From: Nitrospira sp.
Lineage (GTDB): Bacteria; Nitrospirota; Nitrospiria; Nitrospirales; Nitrospiraceae
Length of the DNA stretch: 64,000 nucleotides
Direction: 5' to 3'
Assembly (NCBI GenBank): GCA_047150005.1
Contig: AP038806.1
Coordinates: 1,337,176-1,401,175 of the forward strand
In this document: positions 6,766 through 17,666 of the stretch, piece after piece
Layout of the letters: each line of letters starts with the position of its first letter
Position numbering within the stretch: the first letter of the stretch is position 1
Notes under the pieces: generated by a model
Told to the model about the DNA's origin: nothing
The model's input: the letters and a program-made list of their open reading frames with translations, nothing else
Databases searched by the model: none
Translations under genes and position numbers: made by a program

Positions 6766-7057
6766 TTGTGGCGCGAATGCCCGCAAGGATGAGCCTTTAA
6801 TTCCGGTCGGTTAGCCCGATCCTGTTCTCCTGGTTTCTTATTTTTCTTCCAAAAATGCACATCCCAGTCGAGAATGATCGGAGGGCCATCAGGGTCAGCA
6901 CGGAGTCGACATCCCCTTGCAGGGCCTCTCTCGGAAACAGGTTCCCGAGAGGACACTGGTCCCTGAAGGTTGTGTCACGAGAAGGCTTGTGGTAGCGTCA
7001 AGCCCTTATTGCTCCGTGAATGCCCATGATGGGATTTGGGTCAATTGCGAGAGACCG

Positions 7058-8659
7058 ATGCGCATTCGGGCTTTTTCATGGTTCATGGTCTTGCGAGGAG
7101 CCATTGCGCTCGCCCTGTTACTGGTGTGCGAGACCTCCCTGCCGCCTATCGCCAACGGAGAAACCGCGCCGCCCTCCCCCGGTCGAGTCAGTCTTGACTT
7201 CAATGAAGTGGAACTGCCCGTCTTCGTGCGGTTTATCAGCGAACTGACGGGGAAGAACTTCGTTCTCGACGATAATGTGAAGAAGGCCGGCGGAAAGATC
7301 ACCGTCTTTTCCCCGACCAAGGTCAACCAGGAGCAGGCCTATAACCTCTTTGTTTCGGCGCTGGAAGTGAGTCGGTTGGCGGTCGTTCCGAAAGGCTCCG
7401 TCTATCAGATCGTCCCGATGGGGGAATTGCCGCCGGAACGAGGGGTCTTCGTGTACAAGTTGAAGCATGCGAACGCGACGGACCTTGCCGCCGTGTTGAC
7501 GAATCTGGTGGCCCGGTCTCAAACGGTAGCCCAGATCACACCGGGCACCCGACCACCCATCAGGCCGCTGACGGAATTTGAGGCGCCGGTTCAAGTCTTC
7601 GCGGACAAGGCGACCAATGCCATAATCATTAGTTCGACCAAAGCCGCCTACAGCAAGTTGCAGGCTGTCATCCGCGATTTGGATACCCGCCGCAAACAAG
7701 TCTTTGTCGAGGCCGTGATCCTTGAGGTCCAGGTCGACCGTCTCAAGCAGATCGGAACCGATCCTGTCCAGTTGATCGGCGTCGGAAAAAGTGGAAACGT
7801 CCAGGGTATCGTCGGAGTCAATACGGCCCCCGAAAACCTTTCCACTATCGCGCAAACCATCCTCGGCCTGGGCGCCGACGCATCGACCGGGGGAGCCTTG
7901 TCGGTACTGAACACCGTCAACGTTCGGGCGTTCCTGCAGTTGCTCATGAACCTCACCGACACGAACATTCTTTCCACGCCGCAGGTCCTGGCCGCGGATA
8001 ATCAAAAGGCCAAAATTGTGGTCGGAGAAAATCGGCCCTTCCCCACAGGGCAAGCACAAGGCATCACAGGCGGTACCCTCGTCACGATCGAGCGCAAAGA
8101 CGTCGGCGTCACGTTGGAGTTGACTCCCCAGGTGCTCGAAGACGACATGATCCGTTTGGAGATCAAGCAGGAGATCACGGCCATTGCTGAGAACGTCGCC
8201 CAGACTATTGGAAGCGGCACCTCGAGCGTACCCGTCGGACCCACCACCACCAAACGCTCGATGGAAACAACGACGGTGGCCAAAGATCAGCAAACACTGG
8301 TGGTCGGAGGATTGGTACGGGACAATATCGTCATCAGCGAGCGCAAGATTCCGATGCTCGGCGATATTCCCTATTTGGGCTGGCTGTTCAAATTTCAGGG
8401 CCGCGCGACCGAAAAACTCAACTTGCTGGTCTTTCTGACGCCGACCCTCGTCAGGGACGACGTCGACGTGGTCGATCTGAATGCGAGGAAGGCGACAGAG
8501 CTCAGCACATTCCAGCGCGAGAACCGGATCGAGGAACCCACGAGATTGAAACAGGAAGTTCTGGAGAAACTCGAACGTCAGGGCATACCGACTCGACCGC
8601 TCCCCCCATCCTCCACCAGCCCATCCGGAAGCGCCGCGCCGGCGGCGAGACCGGAGTGA
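7058..8659 (+). CDS. gspD: Secretin, GspD-like, with a shortened periplasmic region
   Basis: Signal peptide, N0 domain (VSLDFNEVELPVFVRFISELTGKNFV), one N3-like domain (LDTRRKQVFVEAVILEV) and a secretin core (ILSTPQVLAADNQKAKIVVG, KIPMLGDIPYLGWLF, NLLVFLTPT). Start taken at ATG 7058. Confidence 0.9.
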   Translation: MRIRAFSWFMVLRGAIALALLLVCETSLPPIANGETAPPSPGRVSLDFNEVELPVFVRFISELTGKNFVLDDNVKKAGGKITVFSPTKVNQEQAYNLFVSALEVSRLAVVPKGSVYQIVPMGELPPERGVFVYKLKHANATDLAAVLTNLVARSQTVAQITPGTRPPIRPLTEFEAPVQVFADKATNAIIISSTKAAYSKLQAVIRDLDTRRKQVFVEAVILEVQVDRLKQIGTDPVQLIGVGKSGNVQGIVGVNTAPENLSTIAQTILGLGADASTGGALSVLNTVNVRAFLQLLMNLTDTNILSTPQVLAADNQKAKIVVGENRPFPTGQAQGITGGTLVTIERKDVGVTLELTPQVLEDDMIRLEIKQEITAIAENVAQTIGSGTSSVPVGPTTTKRSMETTTVAKDQQTLVVGGLVRDNIVISERKIPMLGDIPYLGWLFKFQGRATEKLNLLVFLTPTLVRDDVDVVDLNARKATELSTFQRENRIEEPTRLKQEVLEKLERQGIPTRPLPPSSTSPSGSAAPAARPE

Positions 8660-8830
8660 TGCGCACAGGTCTGCAATTCCGCACGTGAGTCTTCCCCAGT
8701 TTCCCGAGCTTTCGATCAACAGGGAACCAGGAACATGCCCCTCTCGCAGTCTATCCGCTGACACGCCTTGATTAGACTCTTGAGAAGAGGTAGCTTCCTT
8801 CGTTCCATGCGGAAGCAGGAGAAAGAGGTG

Positions 8831-9913
8831 ATGCGGCTATTTCTCCTCTGGATCGTCGCGATGCTCTTCTGGCCCCAGAACCCCTCAGCATGGGAAAGTC
8901 TCGGTCATGAAGTGATTGCCGATGCCGCGCAAGAGCATCTCTCGCCTGAGACGACGAAGACCATCGCACAGATCCTCGGCCATGGCACGACGCTCCCCCC
9001 ACATGCCTTGGCAAAAGCCTCGACATGGCCGGATCAGATCCGGGATCTCCAACGACACGGGGTCGCTGCGTCCAAACTGACCGAGCACGAGTTGAAAGAA
9101 GCTCAGGCGTTCAATACAGCCTTTCCCGACCATGCCCAGTGGCATTTCGTGAATCTGCCGCTGGGAAGTGCGCACTATCCCGACGACGCGGATCTCGACG
9201 ATCTCCTCACACCGTTTACAAATCCTCATGACATCGTGCAGATGCTCAATGTGTGCATTGAAACGCTCGAAACCGTCGGCGACGTAACCCCCTGGACAAA
9301 GGCCCAGGCGCTTCGGTGGCTCATTCATCTCGTAGGGGACGTCCATCAGCCCCTGCATGTCACAACTGGTTACTATCGGACCACGCACCAGGATCTGCCG
9401 AATCCGGTCCTGATTGAACATCCTCACGATGCCGGTCAGGTTGGCGTACTGGGCGATCGCGGCGGGAACGATTTGCTATTCAGTGACTCAGCGAGGGATA
9501 ACCTGCATGCGTTGTGGGATAGCTGCCTCGTCAAAGCCTTGGCCGGGATACGTGCGTGTGGAAAGACGCCCGCCCCTGAGGACGTCGCACGACTCGGTTA
9601 CCTCATTGCCCAACGCATGACGCTGGCCTCCGCGTCGGACTATCGTTCATCGGGTGAGCATTTCAGCTGGGGAGCGCACTGGGCAACGGATTCACTCAAA
9701 ACGGCACGCGCGTCGAAGGCCTATGAGTTTGTCCGGCGAAATGGGATTGTGCGGGATAGTCAACGCGCAGACGCGTCGATCCGTATGACGATTGACGCTC
9801 CCCCCACGAAAGCCGAATACAGCACGAGCCATGAGCCCGTCGTCGCGGCACAATTGACGAAGGCAGCCGTTCGACTCGCCGACCTGTTGAATCACCTGGC
9901 CTGGAAACCATAG
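8831..9913 (+). CDS. Secreted S1/P1 family nuclease
   Basis: Signal peptide followed by W-x3-GH, ASTWPDQIRD, WHFVN, LIHLVGDVHQPLH, DRGGN and NLHALWDS, the zinc-binding motifs of S1/P1 nucleases. Confidence 0.92.
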   Translation: MRLFLLWIVAMLFWPQNPSAWESLGHEVIADAAQEHLSPETTKTIAQILGHGTTLPPHALAKASTWPDQIRDLQRHGVAASKLTEHELKEAQAFNTAFPDHAQWHFVNLPLGSAHYPDDADLDDLLTPFTNPHDIVQMLNVCIETLETVGDVTPWTKAQALRWLIHLVGDVHQPLHVTTGYYRTTHQDLPNPVLIEHPHDAGQVGVLGDRGGNDLLFSDSARDNLHALWDSCLVKALAGIRACGKTPAPEDVARLGYLIAQRMTLASASDYRSSGEHFSWGAHWATDSLKTARASKAYEFVRRNGIVRDSQRADASIRMTIDAPPTKAEYSTSHEPVVAAQLTKAAVRLADLLNHLAWKP

Positions 9914-10460
9914 GACGACCCTCGATGGCCTATGAACACGAGGCCAGCAGCTTGCGCAAGATCAAAGCGGTTAGATGCCGCTGACGCTGCGGAAGAGCAT
10001 AGCTGTCTACGCGCTGGAGGAATGCAGACACAGCCTTGGTACAGCGCATGTTCATCATCGATTGGCTTGAATGGACGCGTAATTGGTCGTCGCTCAGTGT
10101 ACCGGATGTACTCGGTTACTTGCTTTCTCAGTTCGAGCGCCCATTGTTTTCGGATGGATGCAAGACAGAGAACCAAGGGTTCAAGTCCACAGCCGCGTCG
10201 AATAGCGACATGGACGACCGATCCATGCCACTTGTAGCCTGCCGAGTCAGGTCATGAGCAAAATATTCGGCATGGTAGATGTAAGCATTTGAAGCAGAAG
10301 GATGCCCCTTTCCCCAAGCAATGGCAACTGCCTGGAACTTGGATAAACCTCCTAAAAAGAGATTCGAGAAACAGTCCAAACAAGCTATATACGACGGAGC
10401 TTGTGTGCACATCTGGGCTTCCTAGACTTATTGATTGAGGGATCGGATGCCTACAACAAG

Positions 10461-12389
10461 ATGAGACTCGAATCAGTACGCATTAAGAATCTCCGATCCT
10501 TTGCCGATGTCACCGTCCCTTTCAATGACTACACTTGCCTAGTGGGGCCAAATGGCTCTGGCAAATCGACCATCTTGTGCGCCCTCAACGTCTTTTTTCG
10601 TGAAACCGAGAACTCCGGCACTGACCTGAGTCAGCTCGATCGTGAGGATTTTCATCAAAAGAATACCGCTGAACCAATAGAGATTACTGTCACATTCACA
10701 GACTTACGCCCTGAAGCCCAGCAGGACTTTTCCAATTACTATCGTCAGGGAAAGCTCATCATTTCCGCAGTTGCTACTTTCAATGATGCCACCGGAAAAG
10801 CCGAGGTTAGACAGTACGGCCAGCGGCTCGCCATGCCGGGGTTCAAAGAATTTTTCCGAGCCGTTGGTGATAACAAGAAGGTCTCTGAACTAAAGACTCT
10901 TTATACTGAGATCCAGAAACACTTTGGCGATCTTCCAACCCCAGGCACGAAGGACGCCATGATCGAGGCTCTCCGCAAGTATGAAACCGATCACCCCGAT
11001 CAATGCGAATTGATCGCGAGCGAAGATCAGTTTTATGGGGTCTCCAAGGGTGCTAACCGTCTTGCACAATACATTCAGTGGGTTTACGTCCCCGCAGTCA
11101 AAGATGCAGCCACGGAACAGCTTGAGGCCAGAGACACAGCCCTCGGCAAACTGCTGGCGCGTACCGTTCGGGCGAAGACAAATTTTGAAGAGGCCGTCAA
11201 AGCTCTTCGCACTGGGATGCAGGAACAATATCAACAGCTTCTCGATAAGAATCAGGAGGTTTTGAAGGAACTCTCAGATTCACTCCAGATCCGCTTAACC
11301 GAGTGGGCACACCCAGAAGCCACTTTGAAGCTTGAGTGGCGTCAAGATCCTGATAAATCTGTGCGGGTCGAAGAGCCATTAGCAAGAATCATCGCAGGAG
11401 AGGGCAATTTCGAGGGTGAACTCCCCAGATTCGGGCATGGCCTTCAGAGGTCCTACCTCCTTGCTTTGTTGCATGAACTCGCTAGTAGCGATGACAAGGC
11501 CACTCCGCGGCTTATTTTAGGGTGCGAAGAACCTGAGCTCTATCAACATCCCCCTCAGGCCAGACATCTAGCCACCGTCCTCCAAGACCTCAGTAAAGCC
11601 AACTCACAGGTTATTGTTTCGACCCATAGTCCATTATTCGTCTCCGGCGAGGGATTTGAAGATGTCCGCATGGTCAGAAAAGATGCCATTCTAAAGCACT
11701 CGACAGTCACATATATGTCCTACAAAGACATAGCCGATGCCGTTGCAGCCGCCACGGGAGAACCGCCCAGTAAACCTCAGGGTGTTCTGGCAAAGATCCA
11801 CCAAGCATTACAGCCTTCGCTCAATGAGATGTTTTTCACCTCCCGTCTCGTATTGGTCGAGGGTCTTGAAGATGTTGCTTATCTGAGTTCCTACCTTCAT
11901 CTCCTCAATAAATGGGACCAGTACCGACGCAGCGGTTGTCATATTGTCCCCGTGAATGGCAAGAGTGAGATGTTACGCCCGGTGGTGATTGCCAAACGGA
12001 TCGGCACTCCAACCTTCGTTGTCTTTGATTCAGATGCCGATGAGCCGGATCCAGGCAAGAGGGCAAAACATGAGAAAGATAACAAAGCCCTGCTTGCGCT
12101 TCTAGGCAAGGCAAACGAAAACCCATTACCCACAACCAGCTTGTGGGGCCCTGGGTTTGTCATGTGGCGATCAAATATTGGCTCGCTTGTTAGAGCAGAA
12201 ATTGGTGCAGCTGAGTGGAGTGCCTTTCAAGCAGAAGCTGACAAGCAGTACGGCCATGCTGGCGGACTTCGGAAAAATACACTGCATATCGGGTTTTGTC
12301 TTGCCCAAGCTTGGGAATCAGGCAAAAGGTCGCCGAGTCTCGAACGCCTGTGTAATGAGATTTTGAATCCAGCCGTCAGTGTACAGTGA
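10461..12389 (+). CDS. OLD-family ATP-dependent nuclease (ABC-type ATPase + TOPRIM)
   Basis: MRLESVRIKNLRSF start, Walker A GPNGSGKS, Walker B/D-loop CEEPELYQHP, H-loop STHSP, TOPRIM LVEGLED and DSD acidic motifs. Confidence 0.92.
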   Translation: MRLESVRIKNLRSFADVTVPFNDYTCLVGPNGSGKSTILCALNVFFRETENSGTDLSQLDREDFHQKNTAEPIEITVTFTDLRPEAQQDFSNYYRQGKLIISAVATFNDATGKAEVRQYGQRLAMPGFKEFFRAVGDNKKVSELKTLYTEIQKHFGDLPTPGTKDAMIEALRKYETDHPDQCELIASEDQFYGVSKGANRLAQYIQWVYVPAVKDAATEQLEARDTALGKLLARTVRAKTNFEEAVKALRTGMQEQYQQLLDKNQEVLKELSDSLQIRLTEWAHPEATLKLEWRQDPDKSVRVEEPLARIIAGEGNFEGELPRFGHGLQRSYLLALLHELASSDDKATPRLILGCEEPELYQHPPQARHLATVLQDLSKANSQVIVSTHSPLFVSGEGFEDVRMVRKDAILKHSTVTYMSYKDIADAVAAATGEPPSKPQGVLAKIHQALQPSLNEMFFTSRLVLVEGLEDVAYLSSYLHLLNKWDQYRRSGCHIVPVNGKSEMLRPVVIAKRIGTPTFVVFDSDADEPDPGKRAKHEKDNKALLALLGKANENPLPTTSLWGPGFVMWRSNIGSLVRAEIGAAEWSAFQAEADKQYGHAGGLRKNTLHIGFCLAQAWESGKRSPSLERLCNEILNPAVSVQ

Positions 12390-12431
12390 CAACCGTGTTT
12401 CCGGGGAAATGGCCAACTGAGAAGACACAAT

Positions 12432-13673
12432 ATGCGGGTCATCCACACTTCCGATTGGCATCTTGGCCAGGAACTGCATGGTTTCGACCGTCGCGTCGAA
12501 CATGACTCGTTTCTCGACTGGCTAGCCAACCAACTGATCGAACAAAAGGCTGACGCACTCATCATCACGGGCGACGTTTACGACACAGTCAATCCGCCTA
12601 TCCCCGCTCAACAGCGCCTGTATCGATTCTTACGGCGAGTAATAACCGAAAGTCCTCACCTTCAAATAGTGCTCATCGGCGGCAATCATGATTCAGCTGC
12701 ACGACTTGAGCTGCCGAAACACCTTCTTGATGCTAGCCGAGTCCACCTCATCGGGGGAATGCCTCGGCATAATAGTCAACCGGTTGTAGGACAGACCCTG
12801 CTTGAACTACGGGACGCGACCGGAACGCCCCGAGCTGTGTGCGCTGCCGTCCCCTACCTCCGCCCCGGAGATCTTCCCACAGTCGCCAGTGGTGAACGCC
12901 CCCTTCACGCTCTCTACCAGCAAGTTATTGAGGCTGGGCACGTCATGCATGAAGGTCTTCCATTGATCGTCACAGGCCACTTACACATGAGCGGCGGAGC
13001 AGTGTCGGAACTGAGCGAACGACGAATCGTCATAGGAGGCGAGGAGGCGGTTTCCTCTGATCTTTTCCCAGCAAGTGTCTCCTATGTCGCTTTAGGCCAT
13101 CTCCACAAACCACAGTCTGTCTCAGGTCACACGATCATCCGCTATGCCGGATCGCCCTTTCCTATGTCGGTCGCGGAGAGGAACTATCAACACAGTATCG
13201 TCGTGATCGATTTCGATACGACGGCTGACCTCACAATAGATTTGGTGCAGACCCCAAGACCCGTCGCCTTCCTTCGGATTCCGGAAGTTGGCGCAGCGCC
13301 ACTCGACCAAGTCGAGGATGAATTACGCAACCTCGAGATCGACGATCCTGGGCAGGATCGTCGACCATTCCTGGAGGTCGCGGTTCGGCTCGATGGAGCT
13401 GAGCCAGAGCTTCGGTCACGTATCGAAGCTGCCTTGGAGGGGAAGCCTGTCCGACTCACCCGCATCATTCGCCAGACCGAAGGACAGGGAGGCACATTAG
13501 CCGACAACGTGGAAGGAGATACAGAGCTCGACGCGCTGGAGCCTGCCCACGTCTTCGCTCGTCGACATGTTGAGGAATACGGAGTCGAGCCGGCGGCGGA
13601 ACTCAAAAGCGCCTTTGACGAAGTGCTGACGAGCATCTCATCGTCGGAGAACGATCAGACAGGCGCGACATGA
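12432..13673 (+). CDS. sbcD: Exonuclease SbcCD subunit D (Mre11-like)
   Basis: Metallophosphoesterase motifs HTSDWHLG, TGDVYD, GGNHDS, GHLH and LGHLH, plus an SbcD C-terminal region. Confidence 0.95.
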   Translation: MRVIHTSDWHLGQELHGFDRRVEHDSFLDWLANQLIEQKADALIITGDVYDTVNPPIPAQQRLYRFLRRVITESPHLQIVLIGGNHDSAARLELPKHLLDASRVHLIGGMPRHNSQPVVGQTLLELRDATGTPRAVCAAVPYLRPGDLPTVASGERPLHALYQQVIEAGHVMHEGLPLIVTGHLHMSGGAVSELSERRIVIGGEEAVSSDLFPASVSYVALGHLHKPQSVSGHTIIRYAGSPFPMSVAERNYQHSIVVIDFDTTADLTIDLVQTPRPVAFLRIPEVGAAPLDQVEDELRNLEIDDPGQDRRPFLEVAVRLDGAEPELRSRIEAALEGKPVRLTRIIRQTEGQGGTLADNVEGDTELDALEPAHVFARRHVEEYGVEPAAELKSAFDEVLTSISSSENDQTGAT

Positions 13674-16600
13674 GAATCCTTGCGATCCGAGGCGAAAACC
13701 TTGCCAGCCTCTCCGACCCATTCGAAGTCGACTTCGAGGCAGAGCCAATCCGCAGCTCTGGCATCTTCGTGATTACTGGGCCAACCGGCGCTGGGAAGAC
13801 AACCCTGCTGGATGCGCTTTGCCTTGCACTGTTTGACCGGCTCCCTCGCATGGATACAGCAGAGAGTGGAGCATCAATTGGACGGATCGAAGGCGATCTT
13901 TCGCAGCAGCTCAAATATGATGACGTACGCGGGATTCTTCGTCATGGCGCCGGCACGGGCTATGCGGAGGTAGACTTTGTCGCACAGGATGGACAGCGGT
14001 ACCGATCTCGTTGGGAAGTGAATCGTGCGCGGGGCAAAGCCAATGGGAAACTTCAGGGTCAGAAGATCACGCTCACGGAGATCAAGTCCGGCGCAATTAT
14101 CGGTGACAAGAAGACTGATGCGCTTCAGCAGATTCAAAAGCGAATCGGGCTCAGCTTCGATCAATTTCGACGATCAGTCCTTCTAGCCCAGGGCGACTTT
14201 GACACTTTCATAAAGGCCGGCTCAAAAGACAGAGCCGAACTCCTCGAAAAGATCACAGGGACCCAGATTTACTCTGATATCTCGCGGGCCGCATTCGCCC
14301 GAGCCAAACAGGAGCGGGAAGCGCTACGAGACCTTGAAACCCAACTCGGTGAGCATCAGCCACTTGGGGATGAAGCAAGAACTGCGGCAGAGCTACGCCT
14401 CAAGGAAACTAGGACTGAACGAGACCGTATCGAGGCAGCCCGAGTCACTCTCAGGAAATGGGAGGATTGGCACGAGGTTAAATCTCGACTCGACACACGT
14501 GTTGTGGAAGGGAATGCGGCGCTGACGCAAGCCTTGGCGTTAGATCACAATGCTGAGAGTGATCGGGCCACACTCGCAATGGCAAAGAAGGCATTTGCCC
14601 TGCGTGCCGAGATCGAGACAGCAACGGCCACCGGAAGGCGGCTGGCAGACGCAGGGAAAGCATTCGCCGAGGCACAGGAAGGTGAACGTACAGCGCTAGA
14701 GAAGCGCGATAAAGCAGTTTCGGCGAGCAACGCTGCCAAGGGTGAACGCGACAAAGAACGAGCCGCCTATGATGCGATAGGCCCTGAGCTCGATAAAGCG
14801 CAACGGCTCGACGCCCTGATTGAATTAGCCAAGGTTGATTTGGCAGATCTAGCAGACTTCCTAAGAAAGAGCTTCAAGGAGAAAGACACCGCGCACGATG
14901 CCGTTACAGAGGTCGAGCGTACACTCAGGGCGACACGAGACCAGCGTGAAAATGATGGCCGTTGGCTCGAAGAACACAAATCAATCGAGGCACTTTCGGT
15001 ACGAATGAAAGATGTCGAGAGGGATCTATCCGAGCGGCTCACTCTGACATCTAACATTACATCAACCGAGTCAATGATTCGGCAGCTTGCTCTCGATGTG
15101 GAAGTTGCCAGAACATCCCGCCGGGAAAAGGAAAGTGTGGTCGCGGCCCTCCAGGAACAAGACCGTAAACTAGACGAGCAGATTGCCACCCTCCGACAAA
15201 TTGCTGGCGCAATCGATGCCTCTGCGGTTGAAGCCAGACGCGATAAGCTTATGCAGGTTCAGGCTGCGTTGGATAATGCGCAGCACGCTTCAGAAGATGC
15301 CCGGAAGGCCCATGGGGCAATCATTACGGCAAACGATGAGGCAGCCAAGCAGGAAACTCTCATCCATCGCGCTTCCGGGGTCATGACTCAGATAGATGCC
15401 GAGTTACCCACGGACCTTGCACGTATGGAAGAAGCCCGGCGCAGCCTTGCTCTTTCCGAAGCGGCGGGAACGGAGGCAGCAGAGCATCTTCGACTCAAAC
15501 TGGAAGAGGGACAACCATGTCCAGTCTGCGGAGCAACGGAACACCCCGTCGCCGACGTTGATCGACTCCTTAAGGCTCGAGTACTGGCCGATCATAGTCG
15601 CGTCGCCGAGTTGGAAACGAAGGTGTCATCCGCTCAGGCTAACCGTACCCGCTCAGAGACACAGATCGCTGCGGCAAAGGATGCACTAGAAGGAGTCCTG
15701 CGGCGGAGATCGACTCAAGAGAAAGAATTGCGGGTTGCACTCGACAAATGGCAGGCATCAGTTGCTTCTGCATCGACCTATTGTGGCGAGATTGGAGTTT
15801 CCGTCCCAACCTTCCCCGAGGATGCCATTGGCGCAGAAAGTGTAGCGGCCATCAACTCCGCTCGAGGGACAGTGGAGAAGCTGCTGAGTGATGCCAGGGA
15901 GATCATTAAGCGTGCGTCCGACGCTGAAGCTCAAATCCGAACAGTCTCCGATGATCGTGAGAACGTTCGCGCTCGCCTATTAACCGCAAATGCAGACATT
16001 GTGAAGCTCACGGATGAAGAACATGACAAAGTCAGTAAGGCGGGGATGCTCCAAGCGACTCTTCAAGGAACGAAGCAGAATCTAGTCTCCCTCTATTCCC
16101 GTCTCGACACAGCGCTCGCCCTGGTGTTTCCCAACTGGCAGAATCAAATTACCAGCACCGATGAACCATTCGTAGAGATCTGCAGCAATCTTGTCAACGA
16201 CTGGCATATATGTCGTAGACGGCATGAGATGACCGCTGCCGATATTTCCCGCGTTGAGGCAGATCTGGAGGGAAAGCGGGCAACGCTCAAGGGGCTGGAG
16301 ACCGCCATCGAGGAAACCCAGAAACGACATGCAGACAAGAAAGATGAGCTCAACGGGCACAATAGTGAGCGCATCCTGGTTATCAAAGGACGGCCCGTCG
16401 GAGAGGTTCGGACTGAATACAGAAAGCGGTCGGAAGCCACAGAAAAACTCTGGAACGAAGCCGAGCATAAGAAATCCATGGCCGAGCAGATTGCTGCTGG
16501 GATGTCGTCAAATGCCCTTGCCGCTCGTAAGACCGCTGAGGCAGCAAGAATCGACCATGAATCGGCAGAGGCTTTGCTCACAGAAAAGCTCCTGGCCAAT

Positions 16601-17443
16601 AACATCAGTAGGTCGCAAGCCGAATCCGCAATCACCAAAGGTGAGGCATGGGTTGTAGCGGAACAGGTTCGTCTCGATACCCTTCGAGAAGCCGTCGCGG
16701 CCGCAAGGGCAACTCTCCTTGAGAGACAACAGTCTGCTAAGGAGCACGAAGCCGCTGATCACCCGACACAAACTCGAGAAGAAATCGCCACGGCCCTCAA
16801 GGAGATAGAGGCGCAGCACACCAAGGCATCAGAGGCATATGTCGAAGCAAGCTCGGTTCTCCTGAGTGACGACCAAGCGCGTTCAAGAACAGGGAAAATC
16901 AAAGCCGCTCTTCATGAGCGACAACAGCAGGCACGTGTATGGGGACAGCTTGACGATCTCATCGGTTCAGCTGACGGCACCAAGTTTCGGCGATTCGCTC
17001 AATCTCTGACATTAAATCATCTCATTCGTTTGGCGAACCAGCACCTGAATAATTTACACCCTCGATATGAGCTACAACGAGCACCAGGCAGCGATCTTGT
17101 ACTACAGGTCATCGATCGCAACATGGCTGATGAGGTCCGCGGTGTTCATAACCTTTCGGGCGGTGAAAGATTTCTGGTTAGCCTTTCTCTAGCACTCGGG
17201 CTCGCCAGCATGTCGTCGAATCGCGGGATTAAGGTTGAGAGCTTGTTTATCGACGAAGGATTTGGTGCACTCGATAGCAATAGCCTGGCAATGGCGGTCT
17301 CTGTCCTAGAACAACTTCAAGCAACAGGTCGCCAAGTCGGTGTGATTAGCCATGTCGAGGAGATGAAAGAACGAATCGCTGTAAAGGTGGAGGTGACCCC
17401 GGTCGGCAGCGGCAGAAGCACCATCCAAGTTGTAACCGCCTGA
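13670..17443 (+). CDS. sbcC: Exonuclease SbcCD subunit C (Rad50-like SMC ATPase)
   Basis: Walker A GPTGAGKT, long coiled coils, central CPVCG zinc hook, LSGGE signature and FIDEGFGALD Walker B/D-loop. ATGA overlap with sbcD. Confidence 0.95.
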   Translation: MRILAIRGENLASLSDPFEVDFEAEPIRSSGIFVITGPTGAGKTTLLDALCLALFDRLPRMDTAESGASIGRIEGDLSQQLKYDDVRGILRHGAGTGYAEVDFVAQDGQRYRSRWEVNRARGKANGKLQGQKITLTEIKSGAIIGDKKTDALQQIQKRIGLSFDQFRRSVLLAQGDFDTFIKAGSKDRAELLEKITGTQIYSDISRAAFARAKQEREALRDLETQLGEHQPLGDEARTAAELRLKETRTERDRIEAARVTLRKWEDWHEVKSRLDTRVVEGNAALTQALALDHNAESDRATLAMAKKAFALRAEIETATATGRRLADAGKAFAEAQEGERTALEKRDKAVSASNAAKGERDKERAAYDAIGPELDKAQRLDALIELAKVDLADLADFLRKSFKEKDTAHDAVTEVERTLRATRDQRENDGRWLEEHKSIEALSVRMKDVERDLSERLTLTSNITSTESMIRQLALDVEVARTSRREKESVVAALQEQDRKLDEQIATLRQIAGAIDASAVEARRDKLMQVQAALDNAQHASEDARKAHGAIITANDEAAKQETLIHRASGVMTQIDAELPTDLARMEEARRSLALSEAAGTEAAEHLRLKLEEGQPCPVCGATEHPVADVDRLLKARVLADHSRVAELETKVSSAQANRTRSETQIAAAKDALEGVLRRRSTQEKELRVALDKWQASVASASTYCGEIGVSVPTFPEDAIGAESVAAINSARGTVEKLLSDAREIIKRASDAEAQIRTVSDDRENVRARLLTANADIVKLTDEEHDKVSKAGMLQATLQGTKQNLVSLYSRLDTALALVFPNWQNQITSTDEPFVEICSNLVNDWHICRRRHEMTAADISRVEADLEGKRATLKGLETAIEETQKRHADKKDELNGHNSERILVIKGRPVGEVRTEYRKRSEATEKLWNEAEHKKSMAEQIAAGMSSNALAARKTAEAARIDHESAEALLTEKLLANNISRSQAESAITKGEAWVVAEQVRLDTLREAVAAARATLLERQQSAKEHEAADHPTQTREEIATALKEIEAQHTKASEAYVEASSVLLSDDQARSRTGKIKAALHERQQQARVWGQLDDLIGSADGTKFRRFAQSLTLNHLIRLANQHLNNLHPRYELQRAPGSDLVLQVIDRNMADEVRGVHNLSGGERFLVSLSLALGLASMSSNRGIKVESLFIDEGFGALDSNSLAMAVSVLEQLQATGRQVGVISHVEEMKERIAVKVEVTPVGSGRSTIQVVTA

Positions 17444-17588
17444 TCGTTTTGTTTCCGTGCGTAAGACCTGTAGCGGCTATAAGTGGCCAAAAAATCATCC
17501 GAATGTTAGCCATGATAGTTGACTCGATACCAGTGCAAGAAAGTAAGAGCGGGTCAAAAATGGTGAGAATGGTTATGAGAAGAAGGTT

Positions 17589-17666
17589 TGGGGTGGATGA
17601 CGGGTTTCGAACCCGCGACCTCCGGATCCACAATCCGGCGCTCTAACCAACTGAGCTACATCCACC
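17589..17666 (-). tRNA. tRNA-His (GUG)
   Basis: Reverse complement G-GTGGATG-TA-GCTCAGTTGGTTAGAGC-G-CCGGATTGTGGATCCGG-AGGTC-GCGGGTTCGAAACCCGT-CATCCAC-C-CCA folds as a cloverleaf with GTG anticodon, G-1:C73 pair and encoded CCA. Confidence 0.98.

Follow-up and report, generated by a model that had tools for sequence, protein, structure and literature searches.

The OLD nucleases have been grouped into classes 1 to 4 and an archaeal Cran1 class, with class 1 made up of standalone genes in variable neighborhoods (PMC12796447). P2 OLD has been described as a tRNA-cleaving abortive effector with two kinds of activator, single-stranded DNA (ssDNA) hairpins formed at the lambda origin and DNA ends left unresolved (bioRxiv 10.64898/2026.07.10.737580). 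The same study found that the host SbcCD counteracts this activation by processing the DNA substrates, that deletion of sbcD potentiates the defense, with resistant lambda becoming sensitive in a delta-sbcD host, and that Gam inhibits SbcCD (Derzhaev et al. 2026, bioRxiv 10.64898/2026.07.10.737580). Self DNA ends that can set off OLD are removed by RecBCD, and OLD binds ends via a Rad50-like channel (PMC13648713). In E. coli the SbcCD involved is encoded by the host chromosome without linkage to old, whereas in the locus described here the nuclease pair is packaged with OLD. This locus lies in a 64,000-nucleotide stretch of Nitrospira sp. DNA (the window; contig AP038806.1 of assembly GCA_047150005.1, forward-strand positions 1,337,176 to 1,401,175), where an OLD gene, sbcD and sbcC follow one another at positions 10461-17443. 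We find that this three-gene cassette is a mobile unit, and the recurrence of OLD beside several kinds of Mre11/Rad50-like pair points to an undescribed partner class for OLD defense systems.

All three genes are intact on the plus strand, with OLD at 10461-12389, sbcD at 12432-13673 and sbcC at 13670-17443 in the open reading frame (ORF) list. OLD and sbcD are 42 bp apart, sbcD and sbcC overlap by an ATGA, the 3' end of a tRNA-His lies 145 bp from the SbcC stop codon (ARAGORN), and the GC content of the cassette is 53.6% vs 61.0% for the remainder of the window. These positions, the intactness of the genes, their spacing, the distance to the tRNA and the lower GC had been reported in a first-pass annotation of the window, and all proved right when re-measured; the catalytic motifs that it had listed for OLD, SbcD and SbcC could all be located in the translated proteins.

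The first gene encodes a class-1-like OLD nuclease of 642 amino acids (aa), starting from the ATG at 10461, whose M1 is invariant across the homolog alignment. It consists of an N-terminal ABC (ATP-binding cassette) ATPase (Pfam AAA_15, 4.8e-47) and a C-terminal TOPRIM nuclease domain at 11832-12035 on the plus strand (OLD-like_TOPRIM, PF20469, 1.5e-11, residues 458-525). The ATPase has a Walker A of GPNGSGKST (aa 29-37) and an EEPE Walker B (351-359), and in the alignment GPNGSGKST, CEEPE and the STHSP H-loop are invariant, as are the catalytic Glu and DxD of the TOPRIM domain, E467 (nt 11859-11861) and D523xD525 (nt 12027-12035). The top PADLOC match is the P2-type 'Old' (1.8e-53), and among solved structures the closest is that of the class 1 OLD from Thermus scotoductus (Ts OLD, 6P74). 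Like the class 1 proteins P2 Old and Ts OLD, it has no helicase, retron or split partner. However, class 1 genes stand alone without a conserved neighbor, whereas SbcD-SbcC adjoins this OLD in 8 triad copies and, like 36% of its sampled relatives, it is operonic with a Mre11/Rad50-type pair. Ts OLD is also shorter, at 528 aa, the protein here having about 100 additional C-terminal residues.

The other OLD classes do not fit either. Gabija, in which the class 2 OLD GajA is joined by the UvrD-like helicase GajB, resembles the cassette in encoding an OLD-family nuclease alongside a DNA-processing partner, and many GajA models match our OLD in PADLOC (1e-18 to 4e-28). The partner here, however, is a Mre11/Rad50-type nuclease-ATPase pair rather than a UvrD helicase; the neighbors of OLD are SbcD and SbcC, there is no GajB, and no UvrD domain occurs in the cassette. 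For class 3 (retron Eco8-type) the score against NF038234 is 56 bits vs a cut-off of 250, and no reverse transcriptase was found among the flanking ORFs, a non-coding RNA not having been searched for. Class 4, or PARIS, is split into AriA and AriB, while here both domains lie within one ORF.

The second protein, SbcD (413 aa, 12432-13673, plus strand), is a Mre11-type nuclease with every phosphoesterase motif in place (I-V: DWH, GDVYD, GNHD, GHLH, GHLH). It scores 181.4 bits against TIGR00619, above the cut-off of 77.65, and aligns end to end with E. coli SbcD (6S6V, 3.3e-43), while its 238.7 bits (1.1e-70) against the equivalog NF008206 are under that model's cut-off of 450. The third protein, the Rad50-type ATPase SbcC (1257 aa, 13670-17443, plus strand), does not reach the curated cut-offs, scoring 259 bits against TIGR00618 (cut-off 478.5) and 399 bits (4.6e-119) against NF007600 (cut-off 750). 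It is nonetheless a clear SbcC homolog. It conforms to the SbcC/Rad50 plan of a split ABC head, long coiled coil and CxxC zinc hook, with a Walker A of GPTGAGKTT (aa 37-45), the signature LSGGE, a Walker B of FIDE (SbcC_Walker_B, 5.6e-09) and the hook CPVC at aa 617-620 (nt 15518-15529). The pair shares with E. coli SbcCD the sbcD-sbcC order, the overlapping stop and start codons, and the zinc hook, Walker A/B and signature of SbcC. E. coli SbcC has 1048 aa, so that the protein here is longer. It also differs in that the pair here is mobile, horizontally acquired in a lineage otherwise without sbcCD, and sits behind an OLD gene.

Lamassu (LmuA/LmuB/LmuC) and Wadjet (JetABCD) likewise join a nuclease effector to a coiled-coil ATPase of the Rad50/SMC type, which senses the ends or the topology of DNA, and the Wadjet protein JetD also has a TOPRIM fold. 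Here, in contrast, the ATPase is a genuine SbcC and is partnered by SbcD; its LmuB match is weak (68 bits, 2.4e-19), no LmuA or LmuC model matched, and there are no LmuA/LmuC or JetA/B/D homologs. We rejected Gabija, PARIS, retron-Eco8, Lamassu, Wadjet and MADS as identities for the cassette, each being without its defining partner here.

That the three genes travel together is apparent from their distribution. The same 7.1-kb block is found in 5 further Nitrospira genomes (L022, L023, L025, L026 and L027) at about 93% nucleotide identity, and the shared sequence begins about 110-150 bp before the OLD ATG and ends with the stop codon of SbcC. None of the flanks of these five other copies match the window and they mostly differ among themselves, which puts the block in at least 4 other chromosomal contexts, with neighbors including SNF2/ResIII helicases and an M32 peptidase, CorA and an aminotransferase, and SNF2 with LPD7 or RNase_H_2 proteins. 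Diverged triads (OLD 80-83% and SbcD 78-81% identical to the cassette) were also found, one flanked by TraN/SLT and ParM-like/SSB genes on a conjugative-element-like contig of 122-133 kb, and one directly after the BREX genes PglZ-BrxL. A search of the PLSDB plasmids gave no close copy, with a best SbcD of 49% and a best OLD of 31% identity. Gene lengths and order are retained even where synonymous divergence (dS) is saturated, and the pairwise ratios of nonsynonymous to synonymous divergence (dN/dS) are 0.05-0.14 for OLD, 0.12-0.22 for SbcD and 0.11-0.40 for SbcC; all three genes are under purifying selection. One copy departs from this pattern. In Nitrospira sp. LS_FP_2_bin.31 (L027:1987-4017) the OLD gene has a 102-bp in-frame insertion (34 codons) after about residue 409 and a premature stop ahead of the TOPRIM domain, whereas SbcD and SbcC keep their full length. 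The disruption reflects either a real pseudogene or an assembly error in a metagenome-assembled genome (MAG), and a broken OLD beside an intact SbcDC fits OLD being the dispensable, dangerous part. Another of these genomes, Nitrospira sp. LK70 (G321), has two members of this particular OLD family on separate contigs, the cassette copy L026 (95%) and the standalone L056 (59%).

The sbcCD pair is accessory and horizontally transferred, and not an inherited repair complex. Close homologs bear Nitrospira names. The 4.07-Mb single-contig genome has exactly one sbcC, one sbcD and one OLD, which answers the question raised in the first-pass annotation of a second sbcCD elsewhere: the cassette pair is the genome's only copy. 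Neither SbcC nor SbcD was found among 40 relatives; within the genus SbcD is missing from 31 of 32 genomes, and none of 32 other same-genus genomes has one above the cut-off. Across the family, SbcD occurs in 5 of 301 sampled Nitrospiraceae species genomes, in 3 of 39 genera, and always at 88-95% identity. It is this near-absence from the genus and the small number of occurrences in the family that mark the pair as accessory and transferred. We rejected a vertically inherited housekeeping sbcCD on the same grounds. The possibility noted earlier, that SbcCD here is simply the sole vertical copy, was thus not borne out, the genus being without SbcCD and the cassette moving as a unit.

To ask how often this OLD family has such partners we used an alignment-based scan with one genome per species, which gave 80 loci of 51-96% identity from many phyla, and their neighbors were clustered and then scanned against Pfam, NCBIfam and PADLOC. 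A Mre11/Rad50-like pair is adjacent to OLD at 29 of the 80 loci (36%), upstream or downstream, and the pairs are of three types that are similar in their ATPases at the P-loop level only. The canonical SbcDC accounts for 5 of the 80 loci, all of them Nitrospira of one sub-lineage. The most numerous, type B (20 loci), consists of a Metallophos protein (about 380 aa) with a weak resemblance to SbcD/Mre11 and a Rad50-like ATPase of about 900 aa, always directly upstream of OLD with gaps of 15-25 bp. Its Rad50-like protein has the Walker A, signature and Walker B and no CxxC zinc hook (e.g. L031:6129-9976, from Sphingomonas fennica), and motif I of its Metallophos protein is DWQ in place of the usual DxH. 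Type C (4 loci) has a Mre11-like protein and an AAA_27 (YhaN-like) protein of about 1160 aa, either up- or downstream of OLD. The first-pass annotation had named a lack of recurrent sbcDC linkage as grounds for giving up its proposal. That outcome did not arise, as Mre11/Rad50-type pairs do recur, with canonical sbcDC itself confined to one sub-lineage; the proposal of a three-gene functional unit gains support from this recurrence and from the movement of the cassette as a unit.

The exchange of partners can be followed on both sides. In the OLD tree the Nitrospira cassette forms one clade, nested in a well-supported 34-member clade with 17 type B loci. Other type B loci are found outside it, and type C turns up at four separate points of the tree. 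AbiEii and SIR2 genes share an island with one more type B triad, whose OLD is 73% identical. Seen from the other side, the gene ahead of one SbcD-SbcC pair (79% identical) belongs to a second OLD clade, which has 26% identity to the cassette OLD, and in this clade 5 of 80 metagenome loci have an adjacent Metallophos and Rad50-like pair, up- or downstream, many of the contigs being too short to judge. The SbcD tree is polytomous as to one or several origins of the canonical triad. Partners swapped on both sides are hard to explain by chance adjacency, and argue for a coupling through shared DNA substrates rather than through specific protein contacts. None of six OLD relatives from viral contigs (44-52% identity) had a Mre11/Rad50-like pair, the partner proteins matched no PADLOC v2 model beyond the weak LmuB similarity, and our literature search found no paper describing an operon of OLD with Mre11/Rad50.

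L030, L031 and L032 (Devosia, Sphingomonas and Rhizobiaceae) carry type B triads that are 97-100% identical and are followed by a VirD4/TraG-type coupling protein, which indicates recent spread by a conjugative element among three alphaproteobacterial families. Standalone OLDs with 73-74% identity to ours are present at L024 and L108. The latter (L108:1-8929, 73%) begins 17 bp past a DISARM-like set of a DEAD/MZB helicase, an SNF2 helicase and a MmeI/Eco57I-type methylase, and has a RecT/PDDEXK recombination pair downstream.

Our preferred, if tentative, reading, in which we have a little less than even confidence, is that OLD is an effector triggered by DNA structures and that the co-encoded SbcCD processes the same structures, sets the threshold at which OLD fires, and makes the module portable. 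The horizontally acquired and self-contained module would act against invading DNA, whether phage or plasmid. The ATPase dimer of OLD would recognize abnormal DNA, such as hairpins and unprocessed ends, upon which the TOPRIM nuclease would cut. The co-transcribed SbcCD would act on these same structures and in doing so set the firing threshold, clearing the hairpins and ends made by the host so that OLD stays silent. A phage that inhibits SbcCD, for example with a Gam-type protein, or that floods the cell with replication hairpins and ends, would cause OLD to fire. Having its own SbcCD would let the module work in hosts that lack one, such as Nitrospira. The parallel is with P2 OLD, whose triggers (ssDNA hairpins and ends) are removed by the host SbcCD and RecBCD as we propose here; we infer both the defense role and the direction of control. 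Beyond the single cassette, OLD with a Mre11/Rad50-type pair could be a distinct, widespread and unnamed class of OLD immunity that carries its own enzyme for clearing self triggers, with inhibition or overload of the pair as the signal of infection; guard and guardee would then form a single package that can pass from one phylum to another. This wider proposal is more speculative, and we would lean somewhat against it if pressed.

Several points weigh against this threshold-setting role for SbcCD. The cassette is known here from its sequence, and P2 OLD is a distant relative. A pair of the Mre11/Rad50 kind is absent from 51 of the 80 OLD loci. If standalone OLDs depended on a host SbcCD, genomes carrying them would be expected to have an SbcD-like gene elsewhere more often than those with a linked pair; the counts are 25 of 51 and 9 of 29, a difference that lies in the predicted direction without reaching significance and that has incomplete MAGs and sub-threshold Metallophos matches as confounders. 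Half of the standalone-OLD genomes, many of them incomplete MAGs, show no SbcD-like gene, and OLD thus does not strictly require a Mre11/Rad50-like partner. In the host RecC is absent and there is a single AddA/RecB-like gene, whose enzyme could already clear DNA ends. Finally, standalone SbcD-SbcC pairs of 69-77% identity, with an SbcC likewise of 1257 aa, occur in ordinary chromosomal or prophage-like contexts, and on this comparison of sequences the cassette SbcCD is an ordinary, recruited SbcCD without visible specialization.

A different way to couple the proteins is as cooperative nucleases. SbcCD would sense or process phage ends and hairpins and license OLD, as the first-pass annotation had suggested, or OLD would nick or cut foreign DNA and SbcCD would degrade the products, and in either case the invader DNA would be destroyed without cell death. 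OLD proteins of classes 1 and 2 have nicking and cutting activity on DNA in vitro, SbcCD blocks the propagation of lambda with long palindromes, and SMC/Rad50-like sensors drive Lamassu, to which the weak LmuB match of SbcC (2.4e-19) would correspond. The tight operons, with a 42-bp gap and ATGA overlap here and 15-25 bp gaps in the type B triads, the filling of the partner slot by three different Mre11/Rad50-like pairs, and defense neighbors including BREX, AbiEii and SIR2 are also as this explanation would have them. We nevertheless consider it unlikely, as the measured effect of SbcCD on P2 OLD is inhibitory and not activating and the target of the effector is tRNA (bioRxiv 10.64898/2026.07.10.737580), and because standalone OLDs are interleaved with linked ones on the tree, so that the partner is not needed for OLD to be retained.

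The genes may also have no functional coupling. A mobile sbcCD and a class 1 OLD of the standalone kind would then be separate cargo that landed side by side and have co-traveled since. Each part does exist alone in close relatives (OLD at 73-74% in L024 and L108, SbcDC at 69-77%), canonical SbcDC adjoins this OLD family in one lineage (5 of 80 loci), the SbcD tree is polytomous on a single origin of the triad, and in L027 SbcDC persists beside a broken OLD. The first-pass annotation had offered a version of this, a housekeeping sbcCD transferred beside an unrelated OLD, which the standalone SbcDC relatives bear out as an account of origin but which leaves the repeated re-association unexplained. 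Set against separate cargo are a linkage that recurs with three unrelated pair types, two OLD clades and both gene orders, cassette boundaries that stay tight from leader to stop codon over at least 6 contexts, purifying selection on all three genes through saturated dS, and the experimental interaction of OLD with SbcCD that exists for P2 OLD (bioRxiv 10.64898/2026.07.10.737580); we find it improbable. More improbable still is a role in repair or element maintenance, in which SbcCD and an OLD-like ATPase-nuclease process the replication or transfer intermediates of an element, e.g. conjugative ssDNA hairpins. One triad does belong to a conjugative element, with TraN/SLT on one side and ParM-like/SSB genes on the other, the type B triads of L030-L032 adjoin a VirD4/TraG coupling protein, and the cell-cycle function of Cran1, an OLD homolog of archaea, shows that non-defense roles exist (PMC12796447). 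However, many copies are in chromosomal defense-island contexts (BREX, AbiEii/SIR2, SNF2/restriction-type helicases), the best family match is the defense protein P2 Old, and no element genes surround the cassette in this genome.

The site occupied by the cassette is itself variable in the genus. Its left border is an S1/P1 nuclease gene at 8768-9913 on the plus strand (Pfam S1-P1_nuclease, 3.6e-38), which is core DNA, and its right border is a tRNA-His (GTG) at 17589-17665 on the minus strand (ARAGORN). Both the nuclease gene (86-88% nucleotide identity) and tRNA-His/pyrF are conserved in the same-genus genomes G001 and G041, where the intervening DNA differs. G001 has 13 kb at the site (L018), with Ku, a MerR-TPR protein, a PAS histidine kinase and an RNase_H_2 fragment, while G041 has 2.7 kb (L019) with one 541-aa ORF without a Pfam match and a repeat of the tRNA-His 3' end. 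From the conserved borders and the differing content between them, the interval 9914-17588 is a variable hotspot, with only the cassette inside it here. The first-pass annotation had placed the cassette in a tRNA-His island, and this holds insofar as a variable hotspot adjoins tRNA-His. The integrase and direct repeat of a tRNA-gene integrative island are missing, however, as no integrase was found among the ORFs around the cassette and no att-like or tRNA-His direct repeat in this genome, which rules out a classical integrase-borne island. Partial repeats of the tRNA-His 3' end do occur near tRNA-His in G041 and G005.

Between the S1/P1 nuclease gene and the cassette lies junction DNA with no recognizable gene (9914-10317), whose ORFs at 9932-10237 and 10128-10412 have no Pfam match and which is not common to the other copies, save for a weak similarity to L022. 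The conserved leader of the cassette follows at 10318-10460 on the plus strand, with homology between copies beginning 110-150 bp upstream of the OLD ATG, and it probably holds the promoter and 5' untranslated region; a scan for sigma-70 consensus and terminators gave no more sites than shuffled sequence. On the far side of the left border a GspD-type secretin gene directly precedes the S1/P1 nuclease gene (window 6917-9913), and both are kept in relatives. This pairing is unusual, and the nuclease is possibly a secreted one.

Few ATPase-nuclease cores of bacterial immune systems are as common as the OLD nucleases, and what restrains them is a current question. A cassette that ships OLD with SbcCD, and sister operons with other Mre11/Rad50-like pairs, would turn a relationship that depends on the host into a portable unit that can be tested directly. 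It would also add a partner class to the classification of OLD systems. For Nitrospira, a key nitrifier, the exchange of a putative defense cassette between genera is documented, and the cassette would suggest that some of the 'repair' SbcCD genes found on mobile elements are components of immunity.

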